A stretch of DNA of 62,942 nucleotides from a virus (IMGVR_UViG_3300038314_001058:1-62942); one strand, 5' to 3'; positions 4,823 to 58,929 are shown, counted from the first letter of the stretch. The notes: generated by a model from the letters alone, not told the origin. Numbers and translations are program-made.

Positions 4823-5719
4823 ATGACCATCAAAGTCGAAACAGGCATCGGCATCTACGGAGCGAACTCCTATGTTCCAGCTCAGTACGTCACCGACTAT
4901 CTCACGGCCCGTGGTCGCGAGACCGAGAACGAGTGGTCTTCGGCATCGCAGGAAGAGCAGGAAGAAGCCTGCATCGAGGCAACCGACTACATCGAGAAGA
5001 ACTTCGGCAGTCGTTTCCGTGGAACTCCTCTGACCTCGTTCGAGACCACCTACGCCGAGGCGACCGTCTCTTTTCTTGGGCTTCCCCTCACTGGCGAGAC
5101 GCTGACCGTCGGTGATGATGTCTACACTTTCGTGTCCGCCCTGACCGGTGAACCGTATGAAGTGCTGATCGGGGCGGATGCAGCGGCTACGAGTGCCAAT
5201 TTTGTAGACGCTCTGATGGGCGTGGTGCTGCAAGCCGGGGTAACGCACGGCGCAGCAACGCCAGCCAGCCGCCACAGCACGGCCACCAGCGCGGCGGGCG
5301 TTGCCACCCTTACCGCTACCGCCCCCGGCGCAAGCGGGGCCTACACGGAGCTCTCAGGGTCGCTCACAAACGTCACAATTACGGCGTTCACCGGCGGCAC
5401 GGACGGTGGCTCCCAGCCCCTGTCGTTTCCCCGGACCGGCATCTACGATCTTCGTGGCAACCGCATCCTTGGTGTCCCTGAGAAGATCAAACAAGCGACC
5501 GCCGAGTACGCCGTTCGCGCCCATGCTGCCCTTCTGATGCAGGACAGTGCTGCTGACGCCTCTGGTGGCCCGATCCTTCTCCGCCGTGAGAAGGTGGGTC
5601 CGATCGAAGAAGAATATGAATATGGAGGTTCCGTGTCGATCCAACGGTATCCTGCTGCCGATCGCCTGATCCGCGCCTTCACCGTGGCCGGTGCTGGGGG
5701 AGGCGTAATCCGTGCCTGA
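4823..5719 (+). CDS. Head-tail adaptor (DnaT-like family) with internal insertion
   Basis: ANSYV...YLTARG, ATDYIE, QPLSFPR, EKVGPIEEEY motifs; synteny. Confidence 0.7.
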   Translation: MTIKVETGIGIYGANSYVPAQYVTDYLTARGRETENEWSSASQEEQEEACIEATDYIEKNFGSRFRGTPLTSFETTYAEATVSFLGLPLTGETLTVGDDVYTFVSALTGEPYEVLIGADAAATSANFVDALMGVVLQAGVTHGAATPASRHSTATSAAGVATLTATAPGASGAYTELSGSLTNVTITAFTGGTDGGSQPLSFPRTGIYDLRGNRILGVPEKIKQATAEYAVRAHAALLMQDSAADASGGPILLRREKVGPIEEEYEYGGSVSIQRYPAADRLIRAFTVAGAGGGVIRA

Positions 5720-6113
5720 ATTCTACGAAAGGATGGCAGCAACTGCCAATCGCTTGATTACGAAACGTGGACGGGACCTTAGACTCGTTCGCTTGGACCA
5801 GGATGCTGGTGATACTCAGCGTCCATGGTGGGGGCCGGGGGACAATCCGAATGAACAGTTTCTCCCCCTGAAGGGCGTGTTCGTTCCTCCTGGAACCGTC
5901 CGGCAGTTCGGACTTCAGTCCCTCGGCCTCGGCACCGAGATCGAAGACATGATCGCCTGGAGCGAGCAGATCATCATCGTAGCCCAAGGGGAGAACGACC
6001 TTCGCCTCTACAAGGAGGTCGATGATGGTGGTGTCCGCTGGGGAGTCGTCGCTTCGCAGATCCTCAAGCCGGGGACGACCACCCTCCTGGGCTTCATAGG
6101 AGTTCGCCGATGA
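5712..6113 (+). CDS. Head closure protein
   Basis: FYERMAATANRLITKRG N-terminus; size and synteny. Confidence 0.6.
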   Translation: MPEFYERMAATANRLITKRGRDLRLVRLDQDAGDTQRPWWGPGDNPNEQFLPLKGVFVPPGTVRQFGLQSLGLGTEIEDMIAWSEQIIIVAQGENDLRLYKEVDDGGVRWGVVASQILKPGTTTLLGFIGVRR

Positions 6114-6529
6114 GTCTCACGTTCGAAGAATCGTATGATTCCATTTATGGTCTTTTCAAGGCTGCATGGGACCCCACCTCCTATCCTGCCTATTACGAGG
6201 CAGTTGACAAAGACCGTATGCCTGATGATCAGCCGTGGGTCTGGGTCAGTATCGAACACGCAGGTGGGAGACAGGCAAGCCTCAGTTCTGGGACTGGTCA
6301 AGCCCGCTTTGAACGGAACGGCATCTTTACTGCTCGCATTTTTGTGGCGGCAGGAAAGGGCTTGCAAGATGCTCTGCCTTTGGCTAAGGTGGTCGCAGAC
6401 GCTTTCGAGGGTAACAGCGCTCCAGGGGGAGTGTGGTTCAGGAACGTGAGGATGAATGAAGTCGGCCGTGATGGCAAGTTCTTTCAGGTGAACGTTCTTG
6501 CAGAATTCACATACGATGAAATCAAGTAA
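6110..6529 (+). CDS. Tail terminator protein
   Basis: 139 aa directly upstream of the tail tube gene; PWVWVSI...G.FTARIF pattern. Confidence 0.65.
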   Translation: MSLTFEESYDSIYGLFKAAWDPTSYPAYYEAVDKDRMPDDQPWVWVSIEHAGGRQASLSSGTGQARFERNGIFTARIFVAAGKGLQDALPLAKVVADAFEGNSAPGGVWFRNVRMNEVGRDGKFFQVNVLAEFTYDEIK

Positions 6530-6540
6530 AGGAGCGCCAC

Positions 6541-8055
6541 ATGGCACAGGTCGCAAAGATCGACTCCAACTCCACCGGACTCGCCTACGCTGAGGAAGCC
6601 TCCCTCAAGACGCTGAGCTCGCCCGTCTGGAAAGGTCTGGAGCCGAACAGCTACGGGGACTTCGGCAGCGATATCACGACTGTCGCACCCGCCCCCATCA
6701 CCGACACCCGTTCGCGCAAGAAAGGTTCCGTCACGGACCTTGACGCGTCTGGTGGTTTCAACCAGAACCTCACCCTCTGGAACTTCGAAGACATCATGCA
6801 GTCGCTGATGTTCTCGAACTGGGAGCGCAAGGGTCTTGAAGAAGTGACGGCTGTCACTGGCACCGTCTACGAGATGGCCTCCACGACTGGCTTCCTGGAC
6901 GGCAGTCTCGTGAAAGGCTTCAAGTTCTCCAATGCTGCGAACAACGGCATGGGTCTTGTCACCGCTGTCACCGCTGACACCTCCATTGCAGTCGCTGGCC
7001 TGACGGCCGAGGGTTCGCCTCCGACCGGTGCCTATGTTCAGGTCGTCGGCTTCCAGGCCGACGCTGGCGACATCGACGTCGACATCTCGGGTGACTTCCC
7101 GACCCTTACCTCGACGACCCTGGACTTCACCACTCTTGGGCTCATCCCCGGTCAGTGGATTTTCCTCGGCGGTGACACAGCGATCACCGAGTTCACCAAT
7201 GCTGTGAACAACGGCTTCAAGCGGGTCCGGTCGATCTCGGCGAATGCTCTGGTCCTCGACAAGTCCGCCGCTGCAATGGTCACCGAGGCGACCACCACCG
7301 AGACGATCCAGATCTTCTTCGGTGACGTCCTTCGTAACCGCACCGGCACCGACATTACGCGCCACACCTATCACCTCGAGCGTCTCCTCGGCGTTCCTGA
7401 CGACGCCCAGCCCGCTCAGGTTCAGTCGCAGGTCCTCCAGGGCATGGTCTGGAACGAAGGTGCCTTCAACATCCCGACGGCAAACCTCGTGAACGTGGAC
7501 GCGACTTTCGTCGGCCTTGATGAGCTTCTCCGCACCGCGGCCGAGGGTCCGTTGCAGACGAACGTTCAGGCACCGATGTCGGCTGACGTCTACAACACGA
7601 GCTCGGACTTCAACCGCCTGAAGATTGCTCAGGTCACCTCGGCAGACGAAGCTCCGGTGCCGCTGGCGACCTACGTGACTGAGATCACGGTCAACGTCAA
7701 CAACAACGTGACCGCCAACAAGGCCGTCGCGGTTCTCGGTGGTTTCGATCTCACCGCTGGCATCTTCCAGGTCAGTGGCTCCGTCACCGCCTACTTCAAC
7801 AACGTCTCCGCAATCGCGGCCGTTCGCAACAACGCCGATATCACGATGGACGCTATCATCGTGAAGAACAACGGTGGTATCGCAATCGATATCCCGCTGA
7901 TCGCCCTCGGCGATGGTCGCCTGAACGTGGAGGCAAACGAGCCGGTGACCATCCCGCTCGCAATGGATGCAGCAGAGGGTCTGGACGCCTACAGTGGCTT
8001 CTCCCACACTCTGCTGTGGACGTGGTTCGCATACCTGCCGGATGCAGCCGAATAA
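6541..8055 (+). CDS. Major tail tube protein
   Basis: 504 aa; KIDSNSTGLAYAEE and LEPNSYGDFG motifs; upstream of chaperone and TMP. Confidence 0.8.
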   Translation: MAQVAKIDSNSTGLAYAEEASLKTLSSPVWKGLEPNSYGDFGSDITTVAPAPITDTRSRKKGSVTDLDASGGFNQNLTLWNFEDIMQSLMFSNWERKGLEEVTAVTGTVYEMASTTGFLDGSLVKGFKFSNAANNGMGLVTAVTADTSIAVAGLTAEGSPPTGAYVQVVGFQADAGDIDVDISGDFPTLTSTTLDFTTLGLIPGQWIFLGGDTAITEFTNAVNNGFKRVRSISANALVLDKSAAAMVTEATTTETIQIFFGDVLRNRTGTDITRHTYHLERLLGVPDDAQPAQVQSQVLQGMVWNEGAFNIPTANLVNVDATFVGLDELLRTAAEGPLQTNVQAPMSADVYNTSSDFNRLKIAQVTSADEAPVPLATYVTEITVNVNNNVTANKAVAVLGGFDLTAGIFQVSGSVTAYFNNVSAIAAVRNNADITMDAIIVKNNGGIAIDIPLIALGDGRLNVEANEPVTIPLAMDAAEGLDAYSGFSHTLLWTWFAYLPDAAE

Positions 8056-8070
8056 TCGACAACCCAAGGA

Positions 8071-8846: not shown

Positions 8847-8850
8847 CGTC

Positions 8851-9315: not shown

Positions 9316-9316
9316 C

Positions 9317-12300
9317 ATGGCAACAGAGAATCTAGACATTGTCATCCGTGAGCGCGGAGCCCGTGTCGTACGTCGCAGGATCGAGGATATCGGTAGCACG
9401 GCCAGCCGTGCCTCCAAGGGTATCCATCTTCTTCAGCAAGCTGTGTTCGCTCTCGGTGCCGCTGGTACGGTCGCCTCCCTTGGGCGTATGCTGGACAGCC
9501 TGACGAACTTCGAGAACCGCCTCCGCCTCGTGACCAATAGCACGGCTGAGCTTGAAGCGGTTCAACAGTCTCTGTTCGGTATTGCCGAAAGGACGAGGTC
9601 TGAGTTCGAGTCAGTATCCGAGACCTATACGAGAGCGGCCCTTGCCCTCCGATCTCTCGGTTACACTCAGCAAGAGGTCCTCAACTACACTGAGCGACTG
9701 AGTAAGGCAGTGATCCTGTCTGGTGCGAGCGTTCGTGAAGCAAACGCCGCCATGATCCAGCTGTCGCAGGGTATGGCCTCTGGTCGCCTGAACGGTGAAG
9801 AACTTCGCTCTGTCTTGGAACAGCTTCCGTATGTCGCTGACGTCATCGGTCAAGAACTGGTGCGAATCGGTGAGATCTCCCGAGGCTCCTTGGGCGAGGA
9901 TGCCGTCATCAATGCCCAGACGCTGACAGAGGCAATGATCAATACTCGTGGTGAAATGCGAGCTCTTGGTGCCGACGGCAAGATCACTTCGCAGGTTATC
10001 ATTGATGCCTTCCGCAATGCTGGTGTTGAAATTGATTCTGCGTTCGCCCAAACCCAATCGACCATCGGTCAGGCGATCAGCGTTCTTCGTACGAACCTGC
10101 TCAGTACCCTAGATTCATTCGATGACGCAACCCAGTTCTCGGCCAGTCTGGCTGATGCGATCAGGGCGGTCTCCGATTCTCTCGATGTCCTTCTTCCACT
10201 GCTCGCAGCCTATGGTGTATCTGTGGCCGCAAGGTTCAGCGGAAACATCCTCCGTTCGACTATCAACGCTACCCGTCAGGAGCTTGCGTATCAGGCCGCT
10301 GTCCGGAATGGATCTGCCATTGTTCTCGGCTCTGTCCAAGCGAACGAAGCCAAGGCTGCGGCAGTCCTCGCTGAATCAAGAGCCAAGGCTGGTCTTGAGG
10401 CTCAGACAGTGAGGTATCTCACGACTCAGAAGGCTGAGATCGCTGCTCAGCTTCAGGCCCTCCGTGCTGATCAGGCGAGCATCGCTATCGACCGGTCGAA
10501 GCAGACTGCCGTCAGCACCCTTACCGGCCGGACGATCGAATATGACACCGCAGTCCGTCGCAACCTTCAGACGACGCAGGCTATCAACATCGCTGAGCAG
10601 AACCTTGTCTCCACCAAGCGCGCTCTGATCGCGGCGATGGGCGCTCAACGGAATGCGGCTATCACTCTGGCAGCAGATCAATCAAGAGCAGCGGCTGCGA
10701 CGGCGGCGGCGAACACCTTCGGTCAGCGTTTGATCCGCATCGTGCCGGGTCTCTCGCTAGTGGCCGCTGGTCTCAGGACCATCGTCTCCCTTCTGGGCGG
10801 TCCTGTCAGCGCCGCCTTTATCGCTGTGATCGGCATCATGGCCGTCTGGAGAAGCCGCTCCGAAGTGATCGAAGCCTCCACGAGAAGGCTGGAGTCGATT
10901 GCCAATGATGTCCGTGAGGCCTACGCTGGGGTCAACGGCGAGGTCGGAAATATCGCTGATAAGCTCAGCACGATCACTCGTGTTGAGGCTATGAGAGAAC
11001 TGACGAACCAGACGAATATTCTGAAATCCTCTCAAAGTGCCCTTGCTGCTGAACTCCAGAATGTCGGCGCGAGCTACGTGGCTCTTGGCGATCAGTATTT
11101 CGTGGAGCAGTTCCGAAACATGGCAGAGGAGGTTCGCAACGGCACGGCAAACCTCGATCAGCTTCGCAATCGCCTCTCTGGAATTGCGGAGACCTCTCCG
11201 TTCGAAGAGATCATCGTTGGTGCTATTGAGGCCAGCCGGGAGACCAGCACGGCAGAAGAGAACTTCCGCCTTGCCGAAGCGATTCTGGCAGTCCTGGATG
11301 GCACGGCCACAGGGGCGCAGCGCGCCCTCCTTGGGCTTAGTTCCGGAGCAGACACCGCCGCTGGCTCTGTTCGCAATCTGGGAAGTGCAGCCCTCGCAAG
11401 CATCAACGCTCTTCGCCAGCTGAAGGGTTTCATCCCCGAGCTTGACAAAGCCGCTCGTATGCAGGAGGATCTTGCAGAGGCCCAAAACCTATATACGATC
11501 GGTGTCAACCAAGCCCAGGAGAGGCTCGACTCCGGGGTCGGCAGTCTCGATCAGTATGCGGCAACTGTCGCAGAACTGGAGGAGACCTACAAGCGAGCTC
11601 GTGCAGAGATCGATGGCACCGCTGAGTCACAGCGTGAAGCCAACAAGGTCTTCGAAGAGTACAGCAACGACACCAACCTCCAGCTGATGGACGACCGGGC
11701 TCGTGCGATTCAGCTTGAGAAAGACAGCTACAACGAAGTTCGTGAAGCGATCGAAGGAACCGCTGGTGCTACCGAGCGGCTCGCAGCGCTTGAGTCCCAG
11801 CACTCCCAGCGTCTCCAGCAGATCAACAAAGACTTCGATGAAATGGAGGCGAAAGCTGGTGGTGGTGGCAAGAAAGGTGCCTCGGCGGCTGCTAAGAAGC
11901 TGAAAGAAGAACTCAAGGAGGTGAACAGCGTCCTCGAGTCCATCAAGGGTCCTGCTGATAACTACAACAGGACTCTGGAGATCCTGGACGAGCTTCTTGA
12001 GAAAGGAAAGATCAGCCAAGCGGAGTTCAACACAGCTACTCGTGACTCCCGCATCGCCTTCCTTGAGTCCCAGACCACGATGCAGGCTGGCTTCGAAAGC
12101 GGCTTCCTGAAGATCATTCAGAAGACCGAGGACGCTGCCTCGCAGATGGAGAACATCATCACCTCGGCCTTCGATGGGATGTCTAAGTCGATTGCTGATC
12201 TGGTGGTTGACGGTGAAGCAGACTTCAGCAGCCTCATCAAGAGCATCAACAAAATGATCATCCAGCTGGTGGTTTCGCAAGCCTTCCAGCAACTCTTCGG

Positions 12301-12673
12301 TGATCAAGCTGGTGTGAACGGAGGCGGCTTGTTCTCTAGCTTCTCCAGTGCCTTGGGTGGCATTGTGGACAGCGCCTTTGCGGGCCTCAGCGGAGCGCCC
12401 GGTGCGGCGGCTGGTGGCTCCTTTACTGTGGGTGCAGGGCAGGGCTTCGGAGGCCTGAGGGGCCACGACGACCGGCTGGTGCCGCTCCGTCTGAAGACCG
12501 GGGAGCACGTCGACATCACTCCGCGAGGCCAAGAGCCAAATCGTGGCGGTGGGGAGACCCATGTTCATAACTGGAACATCACCACTCCGAACGCTGAGTC
12601 GTTCCAGGCAAGCAGATCGCAAGTTTCGGCCCGTGCAGCACGAGCCGTCAGTATTGGACGGAGAAATATGTAA
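9317..12673 (+). CDS. Tape measure protein
   Basis: 1118 aa Ala-rich helical; tape-measure N-terminal motif QLSQGMASGRLNGEELRSVLEQ. Confidence 0.95.
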   Translation: MATENLDIVIRERGARVVRRRIEDIGSTASRASKGIHLLQQAVFALGAAGTVASLGRMLDSLTNFENRLRLVTNSTAELEAVQQSLFGIAERTRSEFESVSETYTRAALALRSLGYTQQEVLNYTERLSKAVILSGASVREANAAMIQLSQGMASGRLNGEELRSVLEQLPYVADVIGQELVRIGEISRGSLGEDAVINAQTLTEAMINTRGEMRALGADGKITSQVIIDAFRNAGVEIDSAFAQTQSTIGQAISVLRTNLLSTLDSFDDATQFSASLADAIRAVSDSLDVLLPLLAAYGVSVAARFSGNILRSTINATRQELAYQAAVRNGSAIVLGSVQANEAKAAAVLAESRAKAGLEAQTVRYLTTQKAEIAAQLQALRADQASIAIDRSKQTAVSTLTGRTIEYDTAVRRNLQTTQAINIAEQNLVSTKRALIAAMGAQRNAAITLAADQSRAAAATAAANTFGQRLIRIVPGLSLVAAGLRTIVSLLGGPVSAAFIAVIGIMAVWRSRSEVIEASTRRLESIANDVREAYAGVNGEVGNIADKLSTITRVEAMRELTNQTNILKSSQSALAAELQNVGASYVALGDQYFVEQFRNMAEEVRNGTANLDQLRNRLSGIAETSPFEEIIVGAIEASRETSTAEENFRLAEAILAVLDGTATGAQRALLGLSSGADTAAGSVRNLGSAALASINALRQLKGFIPELDKAARMQEDLAEAQNLYTIGVNQAQERLDSGVGSLDQYAATVAELEETYKRARAEIDGTAESQREANKVFEEYSNDTNLQLMDDRARAIQLEKDSYNEVREAIEGTAGATERLAALESQHSQRLQQINKDFDEMEAKAGGGGKKGASAAAKKLKEELKEVNSVLESIKGPADNYNRTLEILDELLEKGKISQAEFNTATRDSRIAFLESQTTMQAGFESGFLKIIQKTEDAASQMENIITSAFDGMSKSIADLVVDGEADFSSLIKSINKMIIQLVVSQAFQQLFGDQAGVNGGGLFSSFSSALGGIVDSAFAGLSGAPGAAAGGSFTVGAGQGFGGLRGHDDRLVPLRLKTGEHVDITPRGQEPNRGGGETHVHNWNITTPNAESFQASRSQVSARAARAVSIGRRNM

Positions 12674-20288: not shown

Positions 20289-20442
20289 CCCGCCAAGGTG
20301 CGACCCCTCAGACGCCCTTACAGTGCAACCTTACGCTACCGGGCGGGGTTGTACCTGTAAGGCACCAGTATAGCACCAGCGGCCCGCTCAGAGCGCCTGC
20401 AAACGTGTTTGACAGCTAACCAACGGCACCACGGGGGCTAAC

Positions 20443-24243: not shown

Positions 24244-24272
24244 TTGTCTGCCGCCCCTGTGGCGGCTAGGGT
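24244..24272 (+). promoter_or_regulatory. Sigma70-like promoter
   Basis: TTGTCT-17-TAGGGT. Confidence 0.6.
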
Positions 24273-31507: not shown

Positions 31508-31521
31508 CGAAAGGAAGTCTC

Positions 31522-42314: not shown

Positions 42315-42530
42315 GGACGACCCGCACGACGATTGGACCGCTGACCTTGCCAACCTAAGACCCTCAGGGAGCCATACAGGGCAACCAATGGGCCAAGGGG
42401 CAAGGGCAGCGCCACAGGGCAACCCGGCCACCAGTGCGGCGCTCAGCGGCCCCTCAGAGGCACCTGAAACAAAGGGTTAGCACCCACCAGCGCGGCGGGT
42501 TACAATGTGGGGGCAATTAAGGAGGCACCT

Positions 42531-43043: not shown

Positions 43044-43345
43044 ACAAGACCTTCCGTGAACACGTCACCAGCACGAAGTTCGCACTGACGCTGTCCAAGT
43101 CGATGATCTTCCATCTGCTCTGGTTGTCAGAATCACAACACGTCTGCGGAAGGAGTCATCTGACGCTGGCAGGCCTCACCGATACCACGGTCCCGACCCG
43201 TGGTCGTCTGGCGGCGCGCGGTCTGGTCTACTCACCAGACCCGAACTTCCCCGGCAACTACAAGCTGACCCGCGCCGGTGAGCTCGTCGTCGAGCTGATC
43301 AAGGAAGCTGGTCTTGATGAAGAGTTTAAGGAAGTGATTGAATGA
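43040..43345 (+). CDS. Hypothetical protein, possibly winged-helix
   Basis: L.ARGLV...YKLTRAG..V; ATGA coupling. Confidence 0.55.
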   Translation: MNKTFREHVTSTKFALTLSKSMIFHLLWLSESQHVCGRSHLTLAGLTDTTVPTRGRLAARGLVYSPDPNFPGNYKLTRAGELVVELIKEAGLDEEFKEVIE

Positions 43346-44792: not shown

Positions 44793-44821
44793 TTGTCATT
44801 TGCACCTGCCGTGCCTATGGT
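44793..44821 (+). promoter_or_regulatory. TTGTCATTTGC-class promoter 2
   Basis: TTGTCA-17-TATGGT. Confidence 0.8.
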
Positions 44822-44858
44822 GGGTGCATAAGTAAACCCCCAAGCCTATGAGGATACT

Positions 44859-47262: not shown

Positions 47263-47567
47263 TCCACACGTTTCCTTTCATCCGTTGGTATCGTGACCGC
47301 CGTGGTGACAGCGACTGCGATACCTGCACCCTGATCATCGATGAAGAGCAGAACGGCGTCGAGGTTCGCGAGACCTACTCGACCGATGATTATCAACGGC
47401 TGGCACGGGACTTCCCGCGCCGCAAGTTCCACACGATCACGCTGGTCCACGATCAGGACAGCAATCGCACGGTCTCCAACCAAAAGACCGATAACCTCAA
47501 ATCCCTGCGCCCGGACCTCTGGGACAGGATCAACAAGTTCTACCCGTTCGAGGAGAAGCCGAAATGA
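47259..47567 (+). CDS. Hypothetical protein
   Basis: ATGA coupling. Confidence 0.55.
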   Translation: MIHTFPFIRWYRDRRGDSDCDTCTLIIDEEQNGVEVRETYSTDDYQRLARDFPRRKFHTITLVHDQDSNRTVSNQKTDNLKSLRPDLWDRINKFYPFEEKPK

Positions 47568-48112
47568 ACCTGTTCGTCACCCATACCGACCCAGAGATCT
47601 GTGCGCAGAACCTCGACGACAAGCGCGTCGGCAAGCTGCTCATGGAAGCGAACCAGATGCTGTCGCTGGCGATCAAGGTCAGGCTCGACTCGAAACACTG
47701 GGAACCATTCGTCGGACCAGGAATGCTGACCGCTGGCCTGTCGCACAAGAACCATCCGGTTTCGATCTGGGTTCGCGATTCGTTTGGCAACTTCGGCTGG
47801 ACCCTCCAACACGCCATGTTCCTGGGCAGGGAGTTCGAGCATCGCTTTGGTAAGAAACATGACAGTGCGAGGCGAACCTCGTTCATATATGATTCTGGGT
47901 TGTCCGCATTTCTCTTCAACGTCATGTCGAAGGATGACCCAAAGACGGAGGAGATGACGCCGTTCCAGAACAGCGCTCGCCATGGAGGTCTCGGCATCGA
48001 CTTCACACACCTGCCGGTTCCGGAGTCGTATCAAGCCTATCTCCGCAACCGTTGGCAGGGCGACGCTCGTGCGCCACGCTGGACCAACCGCGAAGTTCCG
48101 GAGTGGGTGTGA
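47564..48112 (+). CDS. Pyrimidine-dimer DNA glycosylase/DenV-like family protein
   Basis: MNLF....DP..CA..LDDKRV.K...E..QMLS, HKNHP...W, EF..RFGK.H. Confidence 0.7.
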   Translation: MNLFVTHTDPEICAQNLDDKRVGKLLMEANQMLSLAIKVRLDSKHWEPFVGPGMLTAGLSHKNHPVSIWVRDSFGNFGWTLQHAMFLGREFEHRFGKKHDSARRTSFIYDSGLSAFLFNVMSKDDPKTEEMTPFQNSARHGGLGIDFTHLPVPESYQAYLRNRWQGDARAPRWTNREVPEWV

Positions 48113-49395: not shown

Positions 49396-49396
49396 A

Positions 49397-51912: not shown

Positions 51913-52118
51913 TGAGAACTGTCATCCAACCGCACCACCTCGGTGATGGAGCCTACGTGTCTCGTGGGGTTGATCACTCCTACCAGTTCGGCGCCAACCA
52001 TCACGAGAATGTCTCCGTCGTGATTCAGCGTGAGGACATGGTCAGTCTCATGCAGTATATCGCCCAGAACGACCCGGCGCTCGCCTCCGTCATGGCAAAC
52101 CAAGTTCACAAGGAATGA
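51912..52118 (+). CDS. Hypothetical protein
   Basis: HLGDGAYV; TGATG coupling. Confidence 0.55.
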   Translation: MRTVIQPHHLGDGAYVSRGVDHSYQFGANHHENVSVVIQREDMVSLMQYIAQNDPALASVMANQVHKE

Positions 52119-52318
52119 CAATGAGCAACGTGATCCACATCCGCTTCCACGAAAATCTGGTAGGCGTTACCCCGGAGCAGACCCGTATGCTGAACAAGAT
52201 GCGATACGGCATGGAGCTCAGGGCGTGGAAACTTCGGCGAGATGCGGCTGAAGAGGAAGGTCGGTACGAGGATATGGACCGGCTGGCGGTTGAGTACGAG
52301 ATGATCGGCCTGCCTTAA
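52115..52318 (+). CDS. Hypothetical protein
   Basis: SD AAGGA. Confidence 0.55.
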   Translation: MTMSNVIHIRFHENLVGVTPEQTRMLNKMRYGMELRAWKLRRDAAEEEGRYEDMDRLAVEYEMIGLP

Positions 52319-52479
52319 GACCCTGTGGCCGCGCTGGCGCTAGGGGCTTGCCCTACCATGCACCCAGCGCGGCCACAGCGCGCCGCTGGTGGGCCTTGCC
52401 GGGGTTGCCGGGTAGGGTAGTGGCCGCGCGGCGCTGGTGGCCCTGTATGGCGCGCATATTGGGGCGCGAAACTTAGCCG

Positions 52480-52508
52480 TTGTTCGCAACTTGGCGCGGT
52501 GCTAGGTT
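52480..52508 (+). promoter_or_regulatory. Sigma70-like promoter
   Basis: TTGTTC-17-TAGGTT. Confidence 0.55.
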
Positions 52509-52534
52509 TGTGGTGTAGCAACTATGGTGATAAA

Positions 52535-52816
52535 ATGAAACCGAATCTTACTATGCCTCACATTCTTGGTATGATTACCAAGGGTGAGTTCCACCCGATG
52601 AACAGCCAGGACTTTCAGGAGTTTCCCGACTGCTCGACGGTAGCTCTGATCAAAAGGTTCTCTCTGCCGTCGGTGCCCGACTTGGGCTATGAAGCTCAGT
52701 CCGGCGTTATCATCGTGGACGCTGAGAAGGAAGAGCTCATCGTTCACGCATACTTCACCGGTGATACCTCGGACGACAACTGGGAACTCACCAAAGACGG
52801 CTGGAAGGAGCTCTGA
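52535..52816 (+). CDS. Hypothetical protein
   Basis: Downstream of promoter; start uncertain. Confidence 0.55.
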   Translation: MKPNLTMPHILGMITKGEFHPMNSQDFQEFPDCSTVALIKRFSLPSVPDLGYEAQSGVIIVDAEKEELIVHAYFTGDTSDDNWELTKDGWKEL

Positions 52817-52817
52817 T

Positions 52818-53132
52818 ATGAACTATCGCACCCTGGAGTCCAACAAGATTGGCGGTTTCTACATCGACCTGATTCTTTGCAAGAGTCGCTATGAAATCCT
52901 GTTCCACGACTCGTTCGGCGACCCGGATGAGAGCCAGGACCTCGGCATCTGCGGCAAGACCGCTCGCAAGGAGTACGCCAAGTTCTGCGAGACCCAGCGC
53001 TCGCTCCCTGCGAACCGGGCGGTGGACTACGGCCCCGACTGGGAAGCCCAAGCTGCGTACGACGCAGCGCATGGGACTGTCAACGGCCATGATCCCGCCA
53101 TCCTGGAGTATCGCGAGTTGGTCGGCGAGTAG
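52818..53132 (+). CDS. Hypothetical protein
   Basis: SD AAGGAG. Confidence 0.6.
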   Translation: MNYRTLESNKIGGFYIDLILCKSRYEILFHDSFGDPDESQDLGICGKTARKEYAKFCETQRSLPANRAVDYGPDWEAQAAYDAAHGTVNGHDPAILEYRELVGE

Positions 53133-53160
53133 ACCGGCGGTCGTCCCCGACTCATTAAGG

Positions 53161-53189
53161 TTGTCATTTGCCCTGCCGCCTGCTATGGT
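53161..53189 (+). promoter_or_regulatory. TTGTCATTTGC-class promoter 5
   Basis: TTGTCA-17-TATGGT. Confidence 0.8.
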
Positions 53190-53212
53190 GGTGGGGTAAA
53201 TAGGAGTGTACT

Positions 53213-53620
53213 ATGGCTGACCTTTCCTTTATCAAGAATGTTTCCCACGCGCCTTGCGAGTGGGCGGACTGGATGACCGAGTGGACGTTTGATTTCGATC
53301 CGTCCGCAACCGACATGATTCGTGAGCGCCTGATCTCTGAGCTCCACCACTTGGGCAGCATCTGGCGCGATGAACTGAAATGCATGATGATCCCAGCGCA
53401 GGGCGAGTGGGATGAGGATCTGGACTGCGGCTGGTGCTACATGGCGGGATTCGAGGAACTGCCGCTCTCGGTGGACTGCAAGAAGCACGAGTTCACCATC
53501 ACCATCTACAACAAGCCGGAGGGCGACGACGCCCTGGACCCGATGCACGAACACTTCACCAGCCCCAACCCCCACCAGTGGATTGAAGCACTGGCAGCAG
53601 TACGGGAGATTTTCAAATGA
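53213..53620 (+). CDS. Acidic hypothetical protein
   Basis: SD AGGAG and ACTATGGC start context. Confidence 0.7.
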   Translation: MADLSFIKNVSHAPCEWADWMTEWTFDFDPSATDMIRERLISELHHLGSIWRDELKCMMIPAQGEWDEDLDCGWCYMAGFEELPLSVDCKKHEFTITIYNKPEGDDALDPMHEHFTSPNPHQWIEALAAVREIFK

Positions 53621-54009
53621 CCGAGTACCTCTTCAAATGGGCCGATATCGGCGGCGACCGCTACGAGCAGGTGAACCGTGCCTGTGACCTCCTGAACGAG
53701 GCCATCCACTTCTGGGCTTTCAACTGGCTCCCTGATTGGAGCCAGTTGGAGTACGTGCGGGTCTACAATGCTGACGGAGCGCTGATCGCCTGCATGATTC
53801 CGAACTACGGTGTCGAGCCGGGCGAGGAGATGATCGAGTGGCTCAGCACCATGGAACAGGAATGGGACGGCGACGATTCCGGCATCACCATTCTGGATGC
53901 CTCCGGCGACACGGAAAAGGATCAGGTCGGTGCTCCTCAGGACTTCGTGTTCTGCGATGAACCCGGCGGCAACTTCTTCATCCTCGATAAATCGGAGGTG
54001 TGGCAATGA
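53617..54009 (+). CDS. Highly acidic hypothetical protein
   Basis: ATGA coupling; Asp/Glu-rich. Confidence 0.65.
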   Translation: MTEYLFKWADIGGDRYEQVNRACDLLNEAIHFWAFNWLPDWSQLEYVRVYNADGALIACMIPNYGVEPGEEMIEWLSTMEQEWDGDDSGITILDASGDTEKDQVGAPQDFVFCDEPGGNFFILDKSEVWQ

Positions 54010-54227
54010 CCAAAGAATATGACCTAACTCCCATAGAGTATGGGAGTCATGTCTATAAACTCGAGGTTCAGCGAATCCTTGAAATGGAATCCTACGGTGT
54101 CAACACCGCCCGAGCCTGGAACCGCCTGAACGAACGCACCATCCGTCGGAGACTGGTTCCTCTCCCTCTCACCCTTCTGGGCCTCATCGTCATTGCGATC
54201 ATTGGGGTCGCCCTGCTTCTCGTCTAA
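54006..54227 (+). CDS. Small protein with C-terminal TM helix
   Basis: SD GGAGG; hydrophobic tail. Confidence 0.55.
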   Translation: MTKEYDLTPIEYGSHVYKLEVQRILEMESYGVNTARAWNRLNERTIRRRLVPLPLTLLGLIVIAIIGVALLLV

Positions 54228-54237
54228 GGAGACTACT

Positions 54238-54603
54238 ATGTGCAAGATCTGTGAACTCAAAGCCCAAGTGAACGAGGCGGTCGCCAAGGGCAAGCTCCTG
54301 AAACTCGACATGGACCACGTCAGCAAGAAGCTGGAGCTCCACATCCGTTCCGGCGGGGTAGCCGGTGATCGTGAGTATCAGGCTCTGGAAGGGCAGGCTG
54401 TCGATCTCATGCGCAAGATCATGGAGAACACCGCCTCCTCGATCGCCCTCCAGGCTCAGGTTGAGCAGTTCGCCCAGGAGAAAGCAGCATCGTCACTGGA
54501 GCGAATCTTCCAGATTCTCAGCGGGGAGCCTTCAGGCGAAAAATCTGCAGAGGGTGATTTTGGTTCGGGGGATTCGGCTCGCCTTCGTCGGCGTATGAAC
54601 TGA
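54238..54603 (+). CDS. Coiled-coil hypothetical protein
   Basis: SD AAGGAG; MCKIC start. Confidence 0.65.
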   Translation: MCKICELKAQVNEAVAKGKLLKLDMDHVSKKLELHIRSGGVAGDREYQALEGQAVDLMRKIMENTASSIALQAQVEQFAQEKAASSLERIFQILSGEPSGEKSAEGDFGSGDSARLRRRMN

Positions 54604-54648
54604 CCGGGTTCGGCGGGTTCGGTGGGTCCCGGCTCGTCGGGTAGTGTT

Positions 54649-54686
54649 CCGGGGCACCCCTTCCTGAAGGAAGAGGGTCCCCCGGA
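54649..54686. terminator. GC-rich hairpin between convergent genes
   Basis: CCGGGG.ACCCCTTCC...GGAAGAGGGTCCCCGG; no clear U tract. Confidence 0.35.
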
Positions 54687-54690
54687 CGAT

Positions 54691-55212
54691 TCACATCCAG
54701 CGCCACATTCTTTTTCGACTGAACTCTTCAATGAACTGTTGTTCATCCTCACTGGTCATGTCCCTGAGAATTTCAAACTCCTCCCTGTAACTGGCCTCCG
54801 TGAGCTCCTCGTCCCACTCCTTCAAGGCGCAGGTCATCCACGAGCTCACCATAAGATGTTCCAGTCCGTACTGCGGGTCTTTAGGCGAACGCCAGCGCCA
54901 GTGCATCGATCCTGTGAAATTGTTGGAGGGCCTTGGATTCTCCTGGAAGCTCATCTTATACGGGACAGCCTTTCCAAGAGCTCTGCCGACCGAATGTTTC
55001 GTCACGTGCGGAGCATCACGGAAGAGTGTCCCCATGAGATCGTCCTTGTCAACGGAGCCTGGACCTGACTCTTGGGCTCTGAACCACCGCCACAGTCTCG
55101 CCACTATAAGGATATTCGTCTCGGTGCAGGGGTCATATTTTGGCATCGGCCATTTGAACGTTTCTCTATAGTAGAGCCGGACTTCGCCATCCATTTTTGG
55201 AGTATGGTACAT
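54691..55212 (-). CDS. Hypothetical protein
   Basis: 173-aa minus-strand ORF with phage-like codons; the overlapping plus ORFs look like shadows. Confidence 0.55.
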   Translation of the reverse strand: MYHTPKMDGEVRLYYRETFKWPMPKYDPCTETNILIVARLWRWFRAQESGPGSVDKDDLMGTLFRDAPHVTKHSVGRALGKAVPYKMSFQENPRPSNNFTGSMHWRWRSPKDPQYGLEHLMVSSWMTCALKEWDEELTEASYREEFEILRDMTSEDEQQFIEEFSRKRMWRWM

Positions 55213-55590
55213 CTTCAGGTTGCATCCTGTGTTAGTTAAAGAAAAACGGCATTTGTTGAACTAACTATACTAAATCATCGGACGCTCCGCAAGTGCTTGA
55301 TTTCATTAACTTGTGTCACGTTAATAGGGCGTATGGGGTAGTAACACCACCAGCCGCAAGTTGCTCAGGGCGCGCGGGCGGCGGTCGTTTGTCGCGTTTC
55401 TCTGGCGGCTGCCGGGTGCCCAGAAGAGAGGGAGGCCCTGCTGGAAAGCCGTGGCGGCAAGTAGTAGTGTTATTTATTTATTATTATTATTAATATAAAA
55501 TAAAAGAATATAAACTGTTGGTTTCGCTGCGCTTTTTCCGTGTCAGTTTGGAAGCATAAGATCACAGCTGACTCTACTTAGATATTCGCG
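55213..55590. other. AT-rich non-coding region related to 22142-22460; candidate replication origin B
   Basis: GTAGTGTTATT plus AT tract at about 55464-55514; GCTGACTCTACTTA at about 55567. Confidence 0.45.
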
Positions 55591-55661
55591 CTTGCATTGG
55601 GCTTCTGAGATGGGCTACGATACACGGGCGAAATAGAATCTTAGGCTCGCGAGCCGGCGCA

Positions 55662-56354
55662 ATGGAGCAGCTGACCATGACAGAAAATACGCGGAAATAT
55701 CACAGAGATCCGTCCAAGCCTCAGAATGGATTCAAGAGCAACCGATTCATCGCCGAGGAGGTCACGCTCCGCGATGGAACGAAAGAAGTTCGGATCCGTT
55801 CGGTCAACGGCACGTTCACGCCTGACCTCTGGGATGTCTTCCTGGACAACTACCGCGAACACGGGATGATGAAGAAGGCCGCTGCCGCTGCCGGAGTTTC
55901 TGCATCCGCCGTCCGCCGGGTGATCACGAAGAATAAGGAGTTCGCCGAAGCCTGCCTGGAGGCGGAAGAAGAATATCGCGACAAGGTCGTCGCGCATGTT
56001 CAGAATCTGGCGCTCAATGGCACGGTGCGGAAGAGCTATGATCGTCAGGGCGCGCTGATCTCGGAAGAGCAGGTGTTCATGCCGAATATCGTTCTGGCAG
56101 AAGCCCGCCGCGTGGAGGAAGGATATCGCGATAAGCGAGAGGTTGCTATGAACGTGAGCGGCGGCGTGCTGGTCGCTCCTTCTGGGCTGAACTCCATTGA
56201 CGACTGGGAATCCAAATACGGCGATGGAGAGACGATTGAGGGCAAAGCCCAAGAAGTGGAGCCGGAAACTCCGACCGATCGAATCTCCAATCATAAGCCG
56301 ATCCGAGGCGGCGTAACACCGGAGATGCTCCGAGACCACAAGACGGACGACTGA
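55662..56354 (+). CDS. terS: Terminase small subunit
   Basis: FL..Y..HG....AA.AAGVS HTH, FAEAC.EA, A.NG, YRDK..V.MN..GGVLVAP; upstream of terL. Confidence 0.7.
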   Translation: MEQLTMTENTRKYHRDPSKPQNGFKSNRFIAEEVTLRDGTKEVRIRSVNGTFTPDLWDVFLDNYREHGMMKKAAAAAGVSASAVRRVITKNKEFAEACLEAEEEYRDKVVAHVQNLALNGTVRKSYDRQGALISEEQVFMPNIVLAEARRVEEGYRDKREVAMNVSGGVLVAPSGLNSIDDWESKYGDGETIEGKAQEVEPETPTDRISNHKPIRGGVTPEMLRDHKTDD

Positions 56355-56388
56355 ATATCTTTCTTCCAGATCCCTCCTCTTTGTCCAC

Positions 56389-56423
56389 AAAAAAAGCCCG
56401 CCATGTCCGAAGACAGGCGGGCT
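56389..56423 (-). terminator. Intrinsic terminator of the inverted early operon (possibly bidirectional)
   Basis: Minus strand GCCCGCCTGTC-TTCG-GACATGGCGGGC-T7. Confidence 0.85.
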
Positions 56424-56445
56424 CATTTTCTTGGGCTTGTGGTTC

Positions 56446-56712
56446 TCAGAAGATGCGCTCTTCTTCCAGATCCCTCGTCATACCCCGAATGTTTCCGGTA
56501 TGAACGATGATGGTCCAGGTCTGGTCGTAGACCGTCTCCCACGGCTTGTCCTCATGCTGGATCCAGCGAGGGGCGACCGTGTTCTTGATCTCAAGGAAAT
56601 CTCCACGGGTCGGTGTGATGACCCGCTTCAGCGATTCGGTCAGAACGACCATCTCAGCTGCGCTATCACAGCAGAAAGGGATCGTGGACAGAGGTGCGAT
56701 ATCGTGTGCCAT
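56446..56712 (-). CDS. Putative early hypothetical protein
   Basis: AAGGAGAGAACTATGGC start. Confidence 0.7.
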   Translation of the reverse strand: MAHDIAPLSTIPFCCDSAAEMVVLTESLKRVITPTRGDFLEIKNTVAPRWIQHEDKPWETVYDQTWTIIVHTGNIRGMTRDLEEERIF

Positions 56713-56722
56713 AGTTCTCTCC

Positions 56723-56944
56723 TTAACGATTGACCCAGTGGCATTCTTCGGTGATCGGGTCACCCTCGTAGCCACTGGCACAGAAGTCGTAGTAGTTGCT
56801 TCCCGGTGATTTGAAGACCGGAGCCGCCTGAAGACCGGGGTCGGCTTCCAGGGTCAGCGTCCAGCCACACAGGTAAATCGGCCGGAACGAATTGGCGCAG
56901 AGCATAGCCTGAGCGACGATCGGCGATACGGGAGGTGTTGCCAT
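56723..56944 (-). CDS. Putative early hypothetical protein
   Basis: AAGGAGAGAACTATGGC start. Confidence 0.7.
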   Translation of the reverse strand: MATPPVSPIVAQAMLCANSFRPIYLCGWTLTLEADPGLQAAPVFKSPGSNYYDFCASGYEGDPITEECHWVNR

Positions 56945-56964
56945 AGTTCTCTCCTTGGTGGTGA

Positions 56965-57010
56965 AGTCCACCGGATGCCAGCCTCCGGAGAGGCTGGTCA
57001 CCGCTAGACT
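56965..57010 (-). promoter_or_regulatory. Intergenic long hairpin H1 (candidate RNase III site)
   Basis: Near-identical to 57437-57482. Confidence 0.65.
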
Positions 57011-57078
57011 TACTTGAAGGCATGGTATATCGTGAGGACGATGAACGCTATGCCTAGGATAGTTAGAAACGAACCCAT
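57010..57078 (-). CDS. 22-aa single-TM peptide MGSFLTILGIAFIVLTIYHAFK
   Basis: Fills the gap between the 57084 stop and hairpin H1. Confidence 0.55.
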   Translation of the reverse strand: MGSFLTILGIAFIVLTIYHAFK

Positions 57079-57083
57079 GCCGA

Positions 57084-57410
57084 TTATCCGGCGTTGTTGA
57101 CCGCCTGACGAATGCGCGCCATGAGCGACAGCTGGATTGCCTTGTCCACGAGTTCCTCGAAGTCGCCGTCCGACAGATACAAGGTGTCCTTGATCTGGTG
57201 GAACGGCTCCAGGTCCAGAAGATTGGCCGAGTCATGCATGGGATCATGCACGACGACGATGCGGCCGGAATCCTGGATGACGCGCAGGCCCAGACGATTG
57301 AGTTCCTCGAAGTCGATGACGACATGGGGAGTGCTCTTCGGCATGGCGTTGTCCTCCAGAACGAGGTCAACGGAGCGGCGGGTCTTGGGAGCGGATTTCG
57401 CGATTGCCAT
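57084..57410 (-). CDS. Putative early hypothetical protein
   Basis: AAGGAAAGTACTATGGC start. Confidence 0.7.
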   Translation of the reverse strand: MAIAKSAPKTRRSVDLVLEDNAMPKSTPHVVIDFEELNRLGLRVIQDSGRIVVVHDPMHDSANLLDLEPFHQIKDTLYLSDGDFEELVDKAIQLSLMARIRQAVNNAG

Positions 57411-57436
57411 AGTACTTTCCTTTCGAATGGTGGGGA

Positions 57437-57482
57437 AGTCCACCGGATGCCAGCCTGGAGACAGGCTGGTCACCGCTAGACT
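57437..57482 (-). promoter_or_regulatory. Intergenic long hairpin H2
   Basis: AGTCTA-G-CGG-TG-A-CCAGCCTG-TCTC-CAGGCTGG-CA-T-CCG-G-TGGACT. Confidence 0.65.
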
Positions 57483-57634
57483 CACTGTTTCTTGAACTCC
57501 TTCCGCTGGCGAGCGACTTCCAGTCGCGTTCCGATGCTTGCCTCGTTGCCCTTGGCAAGCGCCGGAGGACACTTGGTGACCTGACCACCATTGGCGAGGA
57601 ACTCATTGATGAGGTCGATTTCATACTGTGCCAT
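57482..57634 (-). CDS. Small putative early protein (50 aa)
   Basis: AAGGAATATACTATGGC start; I.EFLANGG.VT.CP motif. Confidence 0.7.
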   Translation of the reverse strand: MAQYEIDLINEFLANGGQVTKCPPALAKGNEASIGTRLEVARQRKEFKKQ

Positions 57635-57660
57635 AGTATATTCCTTTCTGGTGTAGTGCA

Positions 57661-57710
57661 TAAGCGCACTGGATGGGAGCCTGTTTCCAGGCTCCGCACC
57701 AGTATGCTCA
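57661..57710 (-). promoter_or_regulatory. Intergenic long hairpin H3
   Basis: Same architecture as H1/H2 with compensatory changes and a GAAA loop. Confidence 0.6.
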
Positions 57711-58205
57711 GGAGGCCTTAGCTTCCTCCTTGGGCTCAGCCTTGGCGGCTTTCGCCTTGAGCCAAGCGTCCTCAGCCGCTTTGAACTCTTCGTCGGTTGC
57801 CTCACGGAGTTCCATGAGGCCGTGGTCCACGTAGAACAGCACGTCCAGGTGATCCAGACCGCCGGTCAGCTTGCAATCCTGAAGGGTCATGCCCTCACGA
57901 TACAGGTGGAACCGGCGGATACGCAGGGCCTTGCCGGGATGCTCGTTGATCTTGGTGATCACGCGGAGCATTTTCCGTTGCGGCTTGGCCTTGGCGACGT
58001 GAGCGGCTGCGCAGTTGCGGATCTTGGCCTCGTTGGCCTGGAATTCCGCGAACTCGATTTCCGCCTTGGTCGGCCCAAGAACTTCCGCCTCGGGAACTTC
58101 CGGGGTTTCCGGAGTTTCCACGGCCGGAGTTTCCACCACAGCGGCGTCCTTAGCAGCTGCATTCTTGCGGGTGGTGTTCTTGCGGGTGGTGTTTGCGTTT
58201 GCCAT
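57708..58205 (-). CDS. First gene of the inverted operon; paralog of 29790-30560
   Basis: ACTATGGC start; YREGMTL...GLDHLDVLFYVDHG. Confidence 0.75.
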   Translation of the reverse strand: MANANTTRKNTTRKNAAAKDAAVVETPAVETPETPEVPEAEVLGPTKAEIEFAEFQANEAKIRNCAAAHVAKAKPQRKMLRVITKINEHPGKALRIRRFHLYREGMTLQDCKLTGGLDHLDVLFYVDHGLMELREATDEEFKAAEDAWLKAKAAKAEPKEEAKAS

Positions 58206-58218
58206 AGTTTTAACTTTC

Positions 58219-58610
58219 CCATAAAGCGCAACCGGGATTGGTTGCCCAAGACCGTGCCCAAGGAGGGCACGGCTAAGGGCAAACAACCCGACCCAATAGG
58301 GACAGGTTACTTGCGTAGGAAAGGATTGGCGTTTTGCTGGTGTTTGCTACCCCTGCCGCCCCAGAACTTAGCGTGGCCCGGTAGTGGTTACAGCGGCCCT
58401 TGCGAGGCGCACTACTGGCGGACGCTGCCCAACGGCAGAGTGTACGCTGGAAACCAGAGCGGGTTGCAGGAGCGGACCAAGTGCCACCGTGCCCTGCATT
58501 GCCGCCCACACTTGCGCTTGGGCGAACCCGACCTACCAGCCGTGGCCCCTATATGCCCGACCCCCGTAGGGGTGGGAAGGGCTAGGCACCGGAGCAAGCC
58601 CCCGTGCCAT
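58219..58610 (-). ncRNA. Candidate ~400-nt structured leader RNA
   Basis: Lies between promoter 58617-58645 and the first gene; several hairpins including a UACG loop; no convincing ORF. Confidence 0.45.
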
Positions 58611-58616
58611 GCAGTT

Positions 58617-58645
58617 ACCTTACATTTGCACTAGCGACCTCGCAA
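58617..58645 (-). promoter_or_regulatory. Promoter of the inverted operon
   Basis: Minus strand TTGCGA-17-TAAGGT. Confidence 0.6.
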
Positions 58646-58772
58646 CAACAAAATGTCCAATGGGGCAAATTAATTGCGAGCGGACGTAGCCTCCCCTCAG
58701 CCGTCCGCTCAGCGGAGCGGTCCTCGGCGGACCCTGCCCTAGTGGGACAGCCATAGGTGCGACCCTGCCGGA

Positions 58773-58929
58773 CGCCACAGGGGCAGGGGCAGGGCAGGGC
58801 AGGGCAGGGCAAGGCCACAGGGGCACCACAGGGCGCGCCACAGGGGCAGGGCAGGGCAAGGGCAGGGCAAGCCCCTGCCACCGGCCACAAGGGCACCACA
58901 GGCCACGCCACAGGGCTGTGGCGCGCTGT
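58773..58929. repeat. Low-complexity GGGCA and (G)CCACAGGG repeat array
   Basis: Tandem AGGGC units and at least five CCACAGGG copies. Confidence 0.85.

Follow-up and report, generated by a model that had tools for sequence, protein, structure and literature searches.

Islands free of GA and TC at conserved positions in a clade of uncultured phages, and a possible link to TC-directed DNA modification

The window analyzed here is the entire IMG/VR virus record IMGVR_UViG_3300038314_001058 (62,942 bases, 57% G+C), and our subject is a set of eight islands, 63-158 nt long, in which the dinucleotide step 5'-GA-3'/5'-TC-3' (GA/TC) is missing from both strands. An exact 98-nt terminal repeat (1-98 = 62844-62941) implies that the assembly is circular, with a length of about 62,843 bp, and the same genome is present as a single 62,857-nt contig in a marine run (X1). 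Six studies (2014-2018) include marine metagenome runs with contigs identical to the window, and contigs from RNA libraries span the island at 58.8 kb, for which DNA carry-over is possible. Nearly all genes lie on the + strand. The nearest named DNA relative is Stenotrophomonas phage Sonora (Mesyanzhinovviridae), although this relationship is distant, and among cultured phages compared by TerL the best matches listed are 56-58% identical. An earlier reading made without database searches (hereafter the sequence-only reading) had listed eight GA/TC-free runs, and all of them were recovered; they are the entries with a length of 63 nt or more in the table below, which also gives the genes and sites discussed.

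Table. Islands, promoter-like sites and genes in the window
Feature	Coordinates	Strand	Context
GA/TC-free island, 133 nt	5216-5348		inside DnaT_2-like virion gene 4823-5719 (+)
Weak island, 26 + 28 nt split by one TC	12394-12447		3' end of open reading frame (ORF) 9317-12673
GA/TC-free island, 77 nt	20312-20388		after gene 19182-20288; 2.3 kb upstream of SNF2 gene
GA/TC-free run, 63 nt	22250-22312		in 378-nt gap upstream of SNF2 operon
Second GA/TC-free run, A+T-rich	22368-22414		same gap upstream of SNF2 operon
GA/TC-free run, 77 nt	24248-24324		begins within sigma-70-like promoter-like site (CTTGTC... at 24244), repeat family D11
p29790	29790-30560	+	conserved; N-terminus like M6 gp49; Lys/Ala/Glu repeat tail; directly upstream of Pplase1-like gene
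Pplase1-like protein	30560-31507	+	Pfam PF18723 HMUDK_hel, E 3.5e-26
Radical SAM/SPASM enzyme	31435-32526	+	
327-aa protein	32529-33512	+	G002 ortholog has weak GT4 match, E 3e-4
Thymidylate-synthase-like (ThyA-like) enzyme, candidate dUMP hydroxymethylase	33513-34565	+	PF00303, E 9.9e-23
ThyA-like and HD-domain hydrolase genes	33513-35110	+	
GA/TC-free island, 136 nt	35512-35647		3' part of DUF3310 gene 35110-35727 (+), 80 nt before polA
Two GA/TC-free runs	42370-42443 (74 nt), 42467-42522		between primase and next operon
ATP-dependent DNA ligase	43342-44340	+	
Seven TTGTCA-N17-TATGGT-like sites	44793-44850 (+), 39174, 46544, 48930, 53161, 59242, 6362		repeat families D3, D10
GA/TC-free island, 149 nt	52320-52468		intergenic
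p57708, 165 aa	57711-58205	-	basic N-terminal tail (MANANTTRKNTTRK...), possible winged-helix domain; terS-terL gap
Low GA/TC density, ~1 kb	58095-59052		terS-terL gap
GA/TC-free island, 158 nt	58772-58929		(GGGCA)n and GCCACAGGG repeats; terS-terL gap

For comparison we used 19 whole genomes, namely the window (G000), 16 whole records (G001-G016), phage M6 and Sonora, of which 12 have GA/TC-free runs of at least 90 nt and are called island genomes below (the window, G001, G003-G010, G012 and G013). In the window GA/TC is the most over-represented step genome-wide (observed/expected 1.30 and 1.34), beginning at 16.2% of positions. Under a geometric model the longest gap expected between occurrences is about 52 nt, and eight gaps are longer, four of them reaching 133-158 nt. 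This expectation is conservative, as the real gaps are less spread than the model, with mid-sized gaps rarer, in the window and the 18 other genomes alike. When the bases of each island were shuffled in 20,000 trials, a GA/TC-free sequence never arose for six of the eight islands, and arose three times for the run at 22250 and once for that at 24248. Of the ten dinucleotide classes that are symmetric between strands, GA/TC alone has a family of outliers, in relatives as well as in the window, and all 14 other dinucleotides occur in the islands. Counting both strands, none of the 232 T in the islands is followed by C, as opposed to 38% genome-wide, and TG makes up 58% of their T contexts. The borders of GA-free and TC-free runs coincide to within tens of bases, and the unit that is avoided is therefore a duplex step of double-stranded DNA. 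The step is missing in the islands alone rather than depleted throughout, which is not the pattern of restriction-site avoidance. The sole outlier of another class in the window is a 174-nt stretch without AC/GT (30344-30517) in the Lys/Ala/Glu repeat tail (KAKEREEAKAAK...) of p29790, a repeat region that also runs for 284 nt without AT from 30277. As a separate observation, GA/TC gaps of at least 20 nt outside the islands fall far short of the geometric expectation: the observed/expected ratio is 0.17-0.50 for the 12 island genomes plus G011, 0.32 for G002, and 0.38-0.59 for G014-G016, M6 and Sonora. The step may be kept dense wherever it is not banned, with codon usage as a confounder.

Two of the islands lie within genes, where the effect on coding can be followed. 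We resampled synonymous codons from the phage's own usage while keeping the protein (100,000 draws), and 10.1 GA/TC would be expected in the island at 5216 and 8.3 in that at 35512; zero was not reached in a single draw for either. Neither coding island encodes Asp or Glu. In the alignment of the DnaT_2-like protein, a segment of 44 codons lacks GA/TC altogether in both the window and G001, while the same segment in G002 has Asp/Glu and ordinary GA/TC. Since resampling never gave zero and the G002 segment keeps its acidic residues, the ban has rewritten the protein itself. The islands are thus under selection at the nucleotide level, on both strands, affecting codons and amino acids, which bears out the sequence-only reading on this point: the resampling, the common borders and the comparison with G002 all agree. 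Two mutational origins were considered and rejected, an APOBEC-like change of TC to TT because the islands are G+C-rich (60-77%) and not AA/TT-rich, and a decay of TC to CC because the amino-acid replacements differ from those predicted.

Some islands also share motifs. There are nine copies of GCCACAGG inside islands and two outside, and CCAGCGCGGCCACAGGG at 35630 recurs as its reverse complement at 52321, the two islands concerned being 71% identical in reverse orientation (E 5e-7). The claim that most islands carry CACCAG(C/T)G and/or a second motif holds for seven of the eight, the run at 22250 having neither. A spacing of 15-17 kb, or a quarter genome, had also been suggested, and while the arithmetic is right, it depends on choosing four of the eight islands, and the relatives show no constant spacing. 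Two weaker look-alikes had also been listed. At 12.4 kb there is indeed a weak island, interrupted by a single TC and in synteny with islands that lie within the homologous gene, or just after it, in G004, G007, G009, G010 and G013; at 27.7 kb the GA/TC density is ordinary. Seven islands were folded as single strands, with unremarkable z values of -1.8 to +1.0; long hairpins are formed by the islands at 20312 (z -1.5) and 52320 (z -1.8). Rfam and tRNA scans of the window gave no matches. The border motif GCGACCCTCAG is not enriched (30 matches with at most two mismatches, compared to 31.4 expected), and at two island borders it is coding sequence (..LRPS..). Zero TC occur on the + strand from 58218 to 58640. 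Two A+T-rich GA/TC-free stretches, 55445-55506 (TTATTTATTTATTATTATTATTAATATAAAATAAAAG) and 22368-22414, have a common GTAGTGTTATT start (repeat family D9). A small ORF at 42283-42480 overlaps the primase stop codon in another frame and enters the island at 42370; it has a DW..(L/V)..LRPS motif in common with G001 and may be a C-terminal extension of the primase or a frameshift product.

Across the clade the islands recur in the same slots. The gap between terS and terL is occupied in all 12 island genomes, and a slot in or beside the DUF3310 gene, before polA, in eight of them. Six have an island after primase (the window, G001, G006, G007, G009 and G010, and also G011), and six have one 0.4-2.6 kb upstream of the SNF2 gene (the window, G006, G007, G008, G010 and G012, and also G011 and G002). 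A slot just after or inside the tape-measure-like gene is used in five, and weakly by the window at 12.4 kb, and one inside the DnaT_2-like gene in three, as well as in G011. The island at 52320-52468 has no counterpart in G001. G011 has three runs of 64-65 nt, G002 a single run of 87 nt and G016 a single marginal run of 85 nt, and no islands were found in G014, G015, M6 or Sonora. We also searched IMG/VR with PolA, which yielded a set of loci (L-numbered) with 75% protein identity and 50% G+C. Five of these, L005-L009, have islands of 136-144 nt in the same slot before polA, with a different sequence that is C-rich compared to the G-rich island of the window, and islands of 49-78 nt follow primase, in a slot that is syntenic in L005-L007, L009 and L014. 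Islands of the window and G001 are only 55-67% identical, and the repeats of G001 (CTGGCAGG, CCTATTG and GCCCTGCC) differ from those of the window. Given the same slots, the low identity and the different repeats, it is the position and the ban that are conserved, not the sequence. A profile search for TerL gave 80 TerL-centered loci, in which a GA/TC-free run occurs at P<1e-4 in 37 and at P<1e-8 in 28, while any other dinucleotide class does so in at most five and at most one, respectively.

The longest GA/TC-free runs at these loci lie 1-2.5 kb upstream of terL and measure 1128, 785, 721, 693, 677, 648, 622, 593, 590 and 573 nt. In the terS-terL slot, blocks of 196-693 nt are found in whole relatives, and of up to 1128 nt in the shorter TerL loci. 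Each element of these blocks is without GA/TC: the promoter-like sites, the ribosome-binding sites (AAGGGG, TAGGGG), a terminator hairpin and the ORFs, of which there are one or two. The main ORF encodes a member of a single family, found in 12 loci, of proteins of 120-160 aa with a Lys/Ala/Pro/Thr-rich tail and a conserved globular part; these proteins contain no Asp or Glu at all because their genes have no GA/TC. A homology search with this acid-free protein gave nine unnamed proteins, some of which contain Asp/Glu (P0006 and P0010). Its AlphaFold model has a pLDDT of 79.5; Foldseek gave nothing in the PDB at E<=0.001 and the ESM Atlas no named cluster, and the top rows of a VIA-align search were winged-helix domains with Z of 6.5-4.2, values low enough to be common by chance. 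The acid-free gene is not in the window. Its terS-terL gap encodes p57708, whose N-terminus is similar to that of the acid-free protein and whose C-terminal domain has a paralog in p29790. The AF2 (AlphaFold) model of p57708 has a mean pLDDT of 67, its best structural match being the winged-helix region of PriA, which at Z 5.2 is weak and of a kind common by chance; full-length orthologs are found in G001, G011 and G002 only. Directly upstream of the GA/TC-free block of G010 (loci L135/L048), the stretch 1182-1477 has many TC and no GA on the terL-sense strand, and includes iteron-like direct repeats (CGTCGTATTCATCATCCTCTAT, twice). Similar TC-rich, GA-free stretches of 100-300 nt lie upstream of the block in G004, G005 and G006, and the TC-free segment 58218-58640 of the window is the mirror image of this type.

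Promoter-like sites also have a connection to the islands. The TTGTCA-N17-TATGGT-like sites of the window fit the two-hexamer layout of sigma-70 promoters, with 16-18 nt spacing and a position upstream of genes, as consensus matches only. In at least four of them (44793, 46544, 48930 and 53161) a GA/TC-free run of 30-54 nt follows directly after the TC of the first hexamer, starting at 44797, 46548, 48934 and 53165, respectively. A further promoter-like site, TTAGCA-N18-TACAAT, was read by eye in the run at 42467-42522. A promoter scan of 52000-59400 gave five sites as opposed to 2.9 expected, with two of the TTGTCA-N17-TATGGT family scored.

The window encodes a set of genes that would suit modification of T. 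The sequence-only reading had proposed hypermodification of T, and genes of this type are present, namely the ThyA-like, Pplase1-like, radical SAM/SPASM, HD-domain and dCMP deaminase genes; the 5-hydroxymethyldeoxyuridine (5-hmdU) kinase of that proposal was not found. The Pplase1-like protein is 26-28% identical to M6 gp55 and Sonora gp42 (28% for the latter) over about 300 aa, which places it in that family, and 47-57% identical to its counterparts in 12 clade genomes. The ThyA-like enzyme is 45% identical to its M6 homolog, a comparison that cannot separate a hydroxymethylase from a thymidylate synthase, and a ribonucleotide reductase is also encoded. Islands in relatives without this operon would have spoken against the proposal; none were seen, and ThyA-like and Pplase1-like genes are present in all 12 island genomes. 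Beside the Pplase1-like gene, 11 of the 12 encode a GT-B-like protein of 417-458 aa, which is found in none of the seven genomes with no runs or only weak or marginal ones, and in no cultured phage of the phage collection. In G006 and G001 these proteins (417-426 aa) match Glycos_transf_1 and Glyco_transf_4 at E 1e-3 to 2e-2. The window and G002 have a 327-332 aa protein in its place, and that of the window (32529-33512) has no Pfam or PHROG match. A TET-associated glycosyltransferase (TAGT, PF20691) was found in G014 and G011, clearly in G014 only. Elsewhere in the window, the gene at 47564-48112 has a weak match to pyrimidine-dimer DNA glycosylases (PF03013 Pyr_excise, E 5.4e-5), with homologs in seven of the 11 other island genomes and also in G011 and G014.

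The reading that we prefer, tentatively and at somewhat less than an even chance, is that the phage carries a TC-specific DNA modification and that the islands are kept plain for proteins unable to adapt to the adduct; islands exempt from such a modification, the core idea of the sequence-only reading, are the leading hypothesis. After replication, the phage DNA would be chemically altered at the duplex step 5'-TC-3'/5'-GA-3', most likely by a bulky modification, perhaps glycosylation, of a 5-hydroxymethyl-dU that replaces T before C, and sites modified in this way would be dense over most of the genome. Glycosylated 5-hydroxymethyluracil (hmU) would be a reasonable guess for the modified base, and no more than that. 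Selection would strip every GA/TC from both strands at a few fixed slots, leaving 60-160 bp plain, and up to 1.1 kb in relatives. Slots of this kind would be the terS-terL gap, the positions just before polA, following primase and within the head-tail gene, those ahead of the SNF2 operon and behind the tape-measure-like gene, and the core of sigma-70-like promoters. Host RNA polymerase would be the first candidate user of plain DNA, both at promoters and along the terS-terL genes (one or two), and replication or packaging proteins are other candidates. We favor a TC-directed modification because it would explain why the islands are symmetric on the duplex and specific to a single step, which genes the phage carries, why runs are linked to promoters, and how whole units come to be GA/TC-free; a causal role of modification, the proteins that would bind the islands and T in TpC as the target are what we infer, the last of these from the avoidance pattern only.

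Several results weigh against this reading. By tblastn (E<=1e-3), the P-loop 5-hmdU DNA kinases of M6 (gp54) and Sonora have no match in the window or G001-G014, the only genomes with matches being G015, G016, Sonora and M6, and a Walker-A scan of the 87 ORFs of the window gave the helicase, primase and TerL only, though a very divergent kinase could escape it. The aGPT-Pplase2 or amino-acid:DNA transferase of the M6 gp51 type likewise has no tblastn match in the window or G001-G014. The four genomes with both enzymes (M6, Sonora, G015 and G016) have no clear islands, apart from the marginal run of G016, and a kinase context is therefore the wrong enzyme to look for. Known T-hypermodified phages lack such islands, namely M6 and, in the 50 kb from its start (of 143 kb), the TG-specific SH-Ab 15599. 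M6, Sonora and this part of SH-Ab 15599 are island-free for every class, and the notion that each context-specific T-hypermodifying phage has islands for its own dinucleotide is not supported so far. The window lacks the GT-B-like gene that otherwise tracks the islands, and the glycosyltransferase matches are below Pfam cut-offs. G002 has the whole modification gene set of the window, yet only one 87-nt island. The first hexamer TTGTCA itself contains TC, and promoters are therefore not fully TC-free, while ordinary early genes have normal GA/TC density, and the adduct therefore cannot simply block transcription. Lastly, the modification is inferred from assembled contigs that are identical across runs.

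Among the alternatives, an immunity of the islands to cleavage survives best, although we consider it unlikely. In this case a nuclease, nickase or glycosylase/AP-lyase of phage or host would act at GA/TC, and the islands would be parts of the genome that must stay uncut, for example an early transcription unit that is read before the phage ligase seals the genome. The two-strand symmetry would suit a duplex-cutting enzyme, and the ligase is found in 11 of the 12 island genomes and G011 but is missing from G002, G014-G016, Sonora and M6; the Pyr_excise-like glycosylase is also present in part of the clade. However, G006 has nine islands and no ligase match, and the distribution of both genes may reflect shared ancestry only. 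No nuclease of this specificity was found, the sites of known nucleases are far longer than two bases, and the ligase gene has normal GA/TC content of its own.

Less probable still would be an effect at the RNA level, in which island transcripts without GA/UC escape an endoribonuclease or avoid Shine-Dalgarno-like motifs such as GGAG and AGGA. The closest parallel is RegB of phage T4, an endoribonuclease that cuts GGAG. Relatives have whole transcription units free of GA/TC, down to GA-free ribosome-binding sites, and in G004, G005, G006 and G010 the GA-free stretch of the sense strand reaches 100-400 nt past the two-strand block, all of which would be expected of such an effect. It would not account for the fact that TC is as completely missing as GA with coinciding run borders, or for strand composition that flips between the G-rich window and the C-rich L005-L009, and patches of 133-136 nt in long genes cannot shield an mRNA that is otherwise full of GA.

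Control of replication is a very unlikely explanation. The islands would lack sites for primase or another replication enzyme and thus serve as priming-free zones or origins, and it is in keeping with this that slots flank polA, primase and SNF2 and that iteron-like TC-only repeats adjoin the block of G010. However, the islands also occur in virion genes and at promoter-like sites, and avoiding trinucleotide priming sites would not require the loss of a dinucleotide from both strands over 1 kb. The view that the islands are protein-binding or G-quadruplex repeat arrays, whose G+C-rich motifs (GCCACAGGG, CACCAGCG, GGGCA) lack GA/TC by chance, can draw on the concentration of GCCACAGG in islands and on the (GGGCA)n tract at 58772, but it is largely refuted and scarcely credible, as same-slot islands of G001 have other repeats and are equally GA/TC-free, A+T-rich runs (55445 and 22368) and coding islands follow the same rule, base-composition shuffles almost never reproduce it, and the blocks of 573-1128 nt encode predicted folded proteins.

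Returning to a TC-directed modification, a broader statement can be made that we regard as possible, though on balance doubtful: the clade may write its regulatory patches, and complete genes in relatives, in a 14-dinucleotide alphabet to escape hypermodification, which would give a sequence-encoded map of modified and unmodified DNA with a permanently plain early or regulatory compartment, and would force DNA-binding-like proteins to be free of Asp/Glu. The islands themselves are real, conserved and apparently undescribed, as had been suspected; we found no mention of modification-free or dinucleotide-free islands in the literature that we searched. They are also a wider phenomenon than first noted, since relatives have entire Asp/Glu-free genes, a natural experiment on how proteins evolve when four codons are banned at the nucleotide level. 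If the modification is real, this would be a new principle of genome organization beyond evasion of host nucleases, with the primary sequence encoding where modification must not go, and dinucleotide-free islands at conserved slots would reveal the presence and context of DNA modification in uncultured viruses computationally. It also raises the questions of how hypermodification affects transcription, replication and packaging, and which proteins need plain DNA. A TpC-reading enzyme would offer a new sequence-selective tool for DNA modification, and GA/TC-free cassettes could possibly be used as modification-immune parts in engineered phages.

Two further observations concern the genome as a whole. 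A 467-aa ORF between virion genes (3389-4792) has no tblastn match (E<=1e-5) in the 18 other genomes, while its neighbors are conserved. At 56388-56395, contigs break in both X11 (an RNA library) and X8 (a 2018 DNA run), with an additional A behind 56388 in one X11 contig and a depth in X8 of 25.7 compared to 43.1 across the break, which suggests co-existing strains with a common segment at 56.4-60 kb.

Among the nearest known systems are the T-hypermodified phages. As in M6, ViI, phiW-14 and SH-Ab 15599, the window has ThyA-like, dCMP deaminase, HD hydrolase and Pplase-family genes clustered with polA. In those phages T is modified only in certain dinucleotides: one report infers a TG or TC context from restriction resistance in M6, ViI and phiW-14 (PMC6449724), and others give a TG context in SH-Ab 15599 (PMC13458397), a conversion of about 23% of hmU by the M6 kinase with mention of "sequence-specific contexts" (PMC8989533), and an NTC context for a phage T-dioxygenase (PMC13229309). 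Unlike M6-type phages, the window has neither kinase nor aGPT-Pplase2 among the genes found, and islands are missing from M6 and from the initial 50 kb of SH-Ab 15599. Base J of kinetoplastids is a glucosyl-hydroxymethyluracil that is found at particular regions and affects transcription; it is made by a dioxygenase and a glucosyltransferase and replaces a small share of T. The clade resembles this system in having glycosyltransferase-like genes beside genes of the hmU pathway, and differs from it in that no dioxygenase was seen in the window. Phages are also known to avoid restriction sites and palindromes, usually genome-wide and for sites of 4-8 bp. Here too selection removes a short word, as proposed because of an enzyme that acts on it, but this one is a dinucleotide, over-represented across the genome (observed/expected 1.3) and removed in fixed islands only. 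A further analogy is to the CpG islands of vertebrates, which are a few hundred bp long, lie at regulatory positions, and are modification-free and open to DNA-binding proteins. The phage islands are likewise discrete patches at regulatory positions that we propose to be free of the genome's modification. However, CpG islands have a high content of the target dinucleotide, and trans-acting factors keep them unmethylated, whereas in the phage islands the target dinucleotide itself is deleted, even where this costs the encoded proteins their Asp and Glu.

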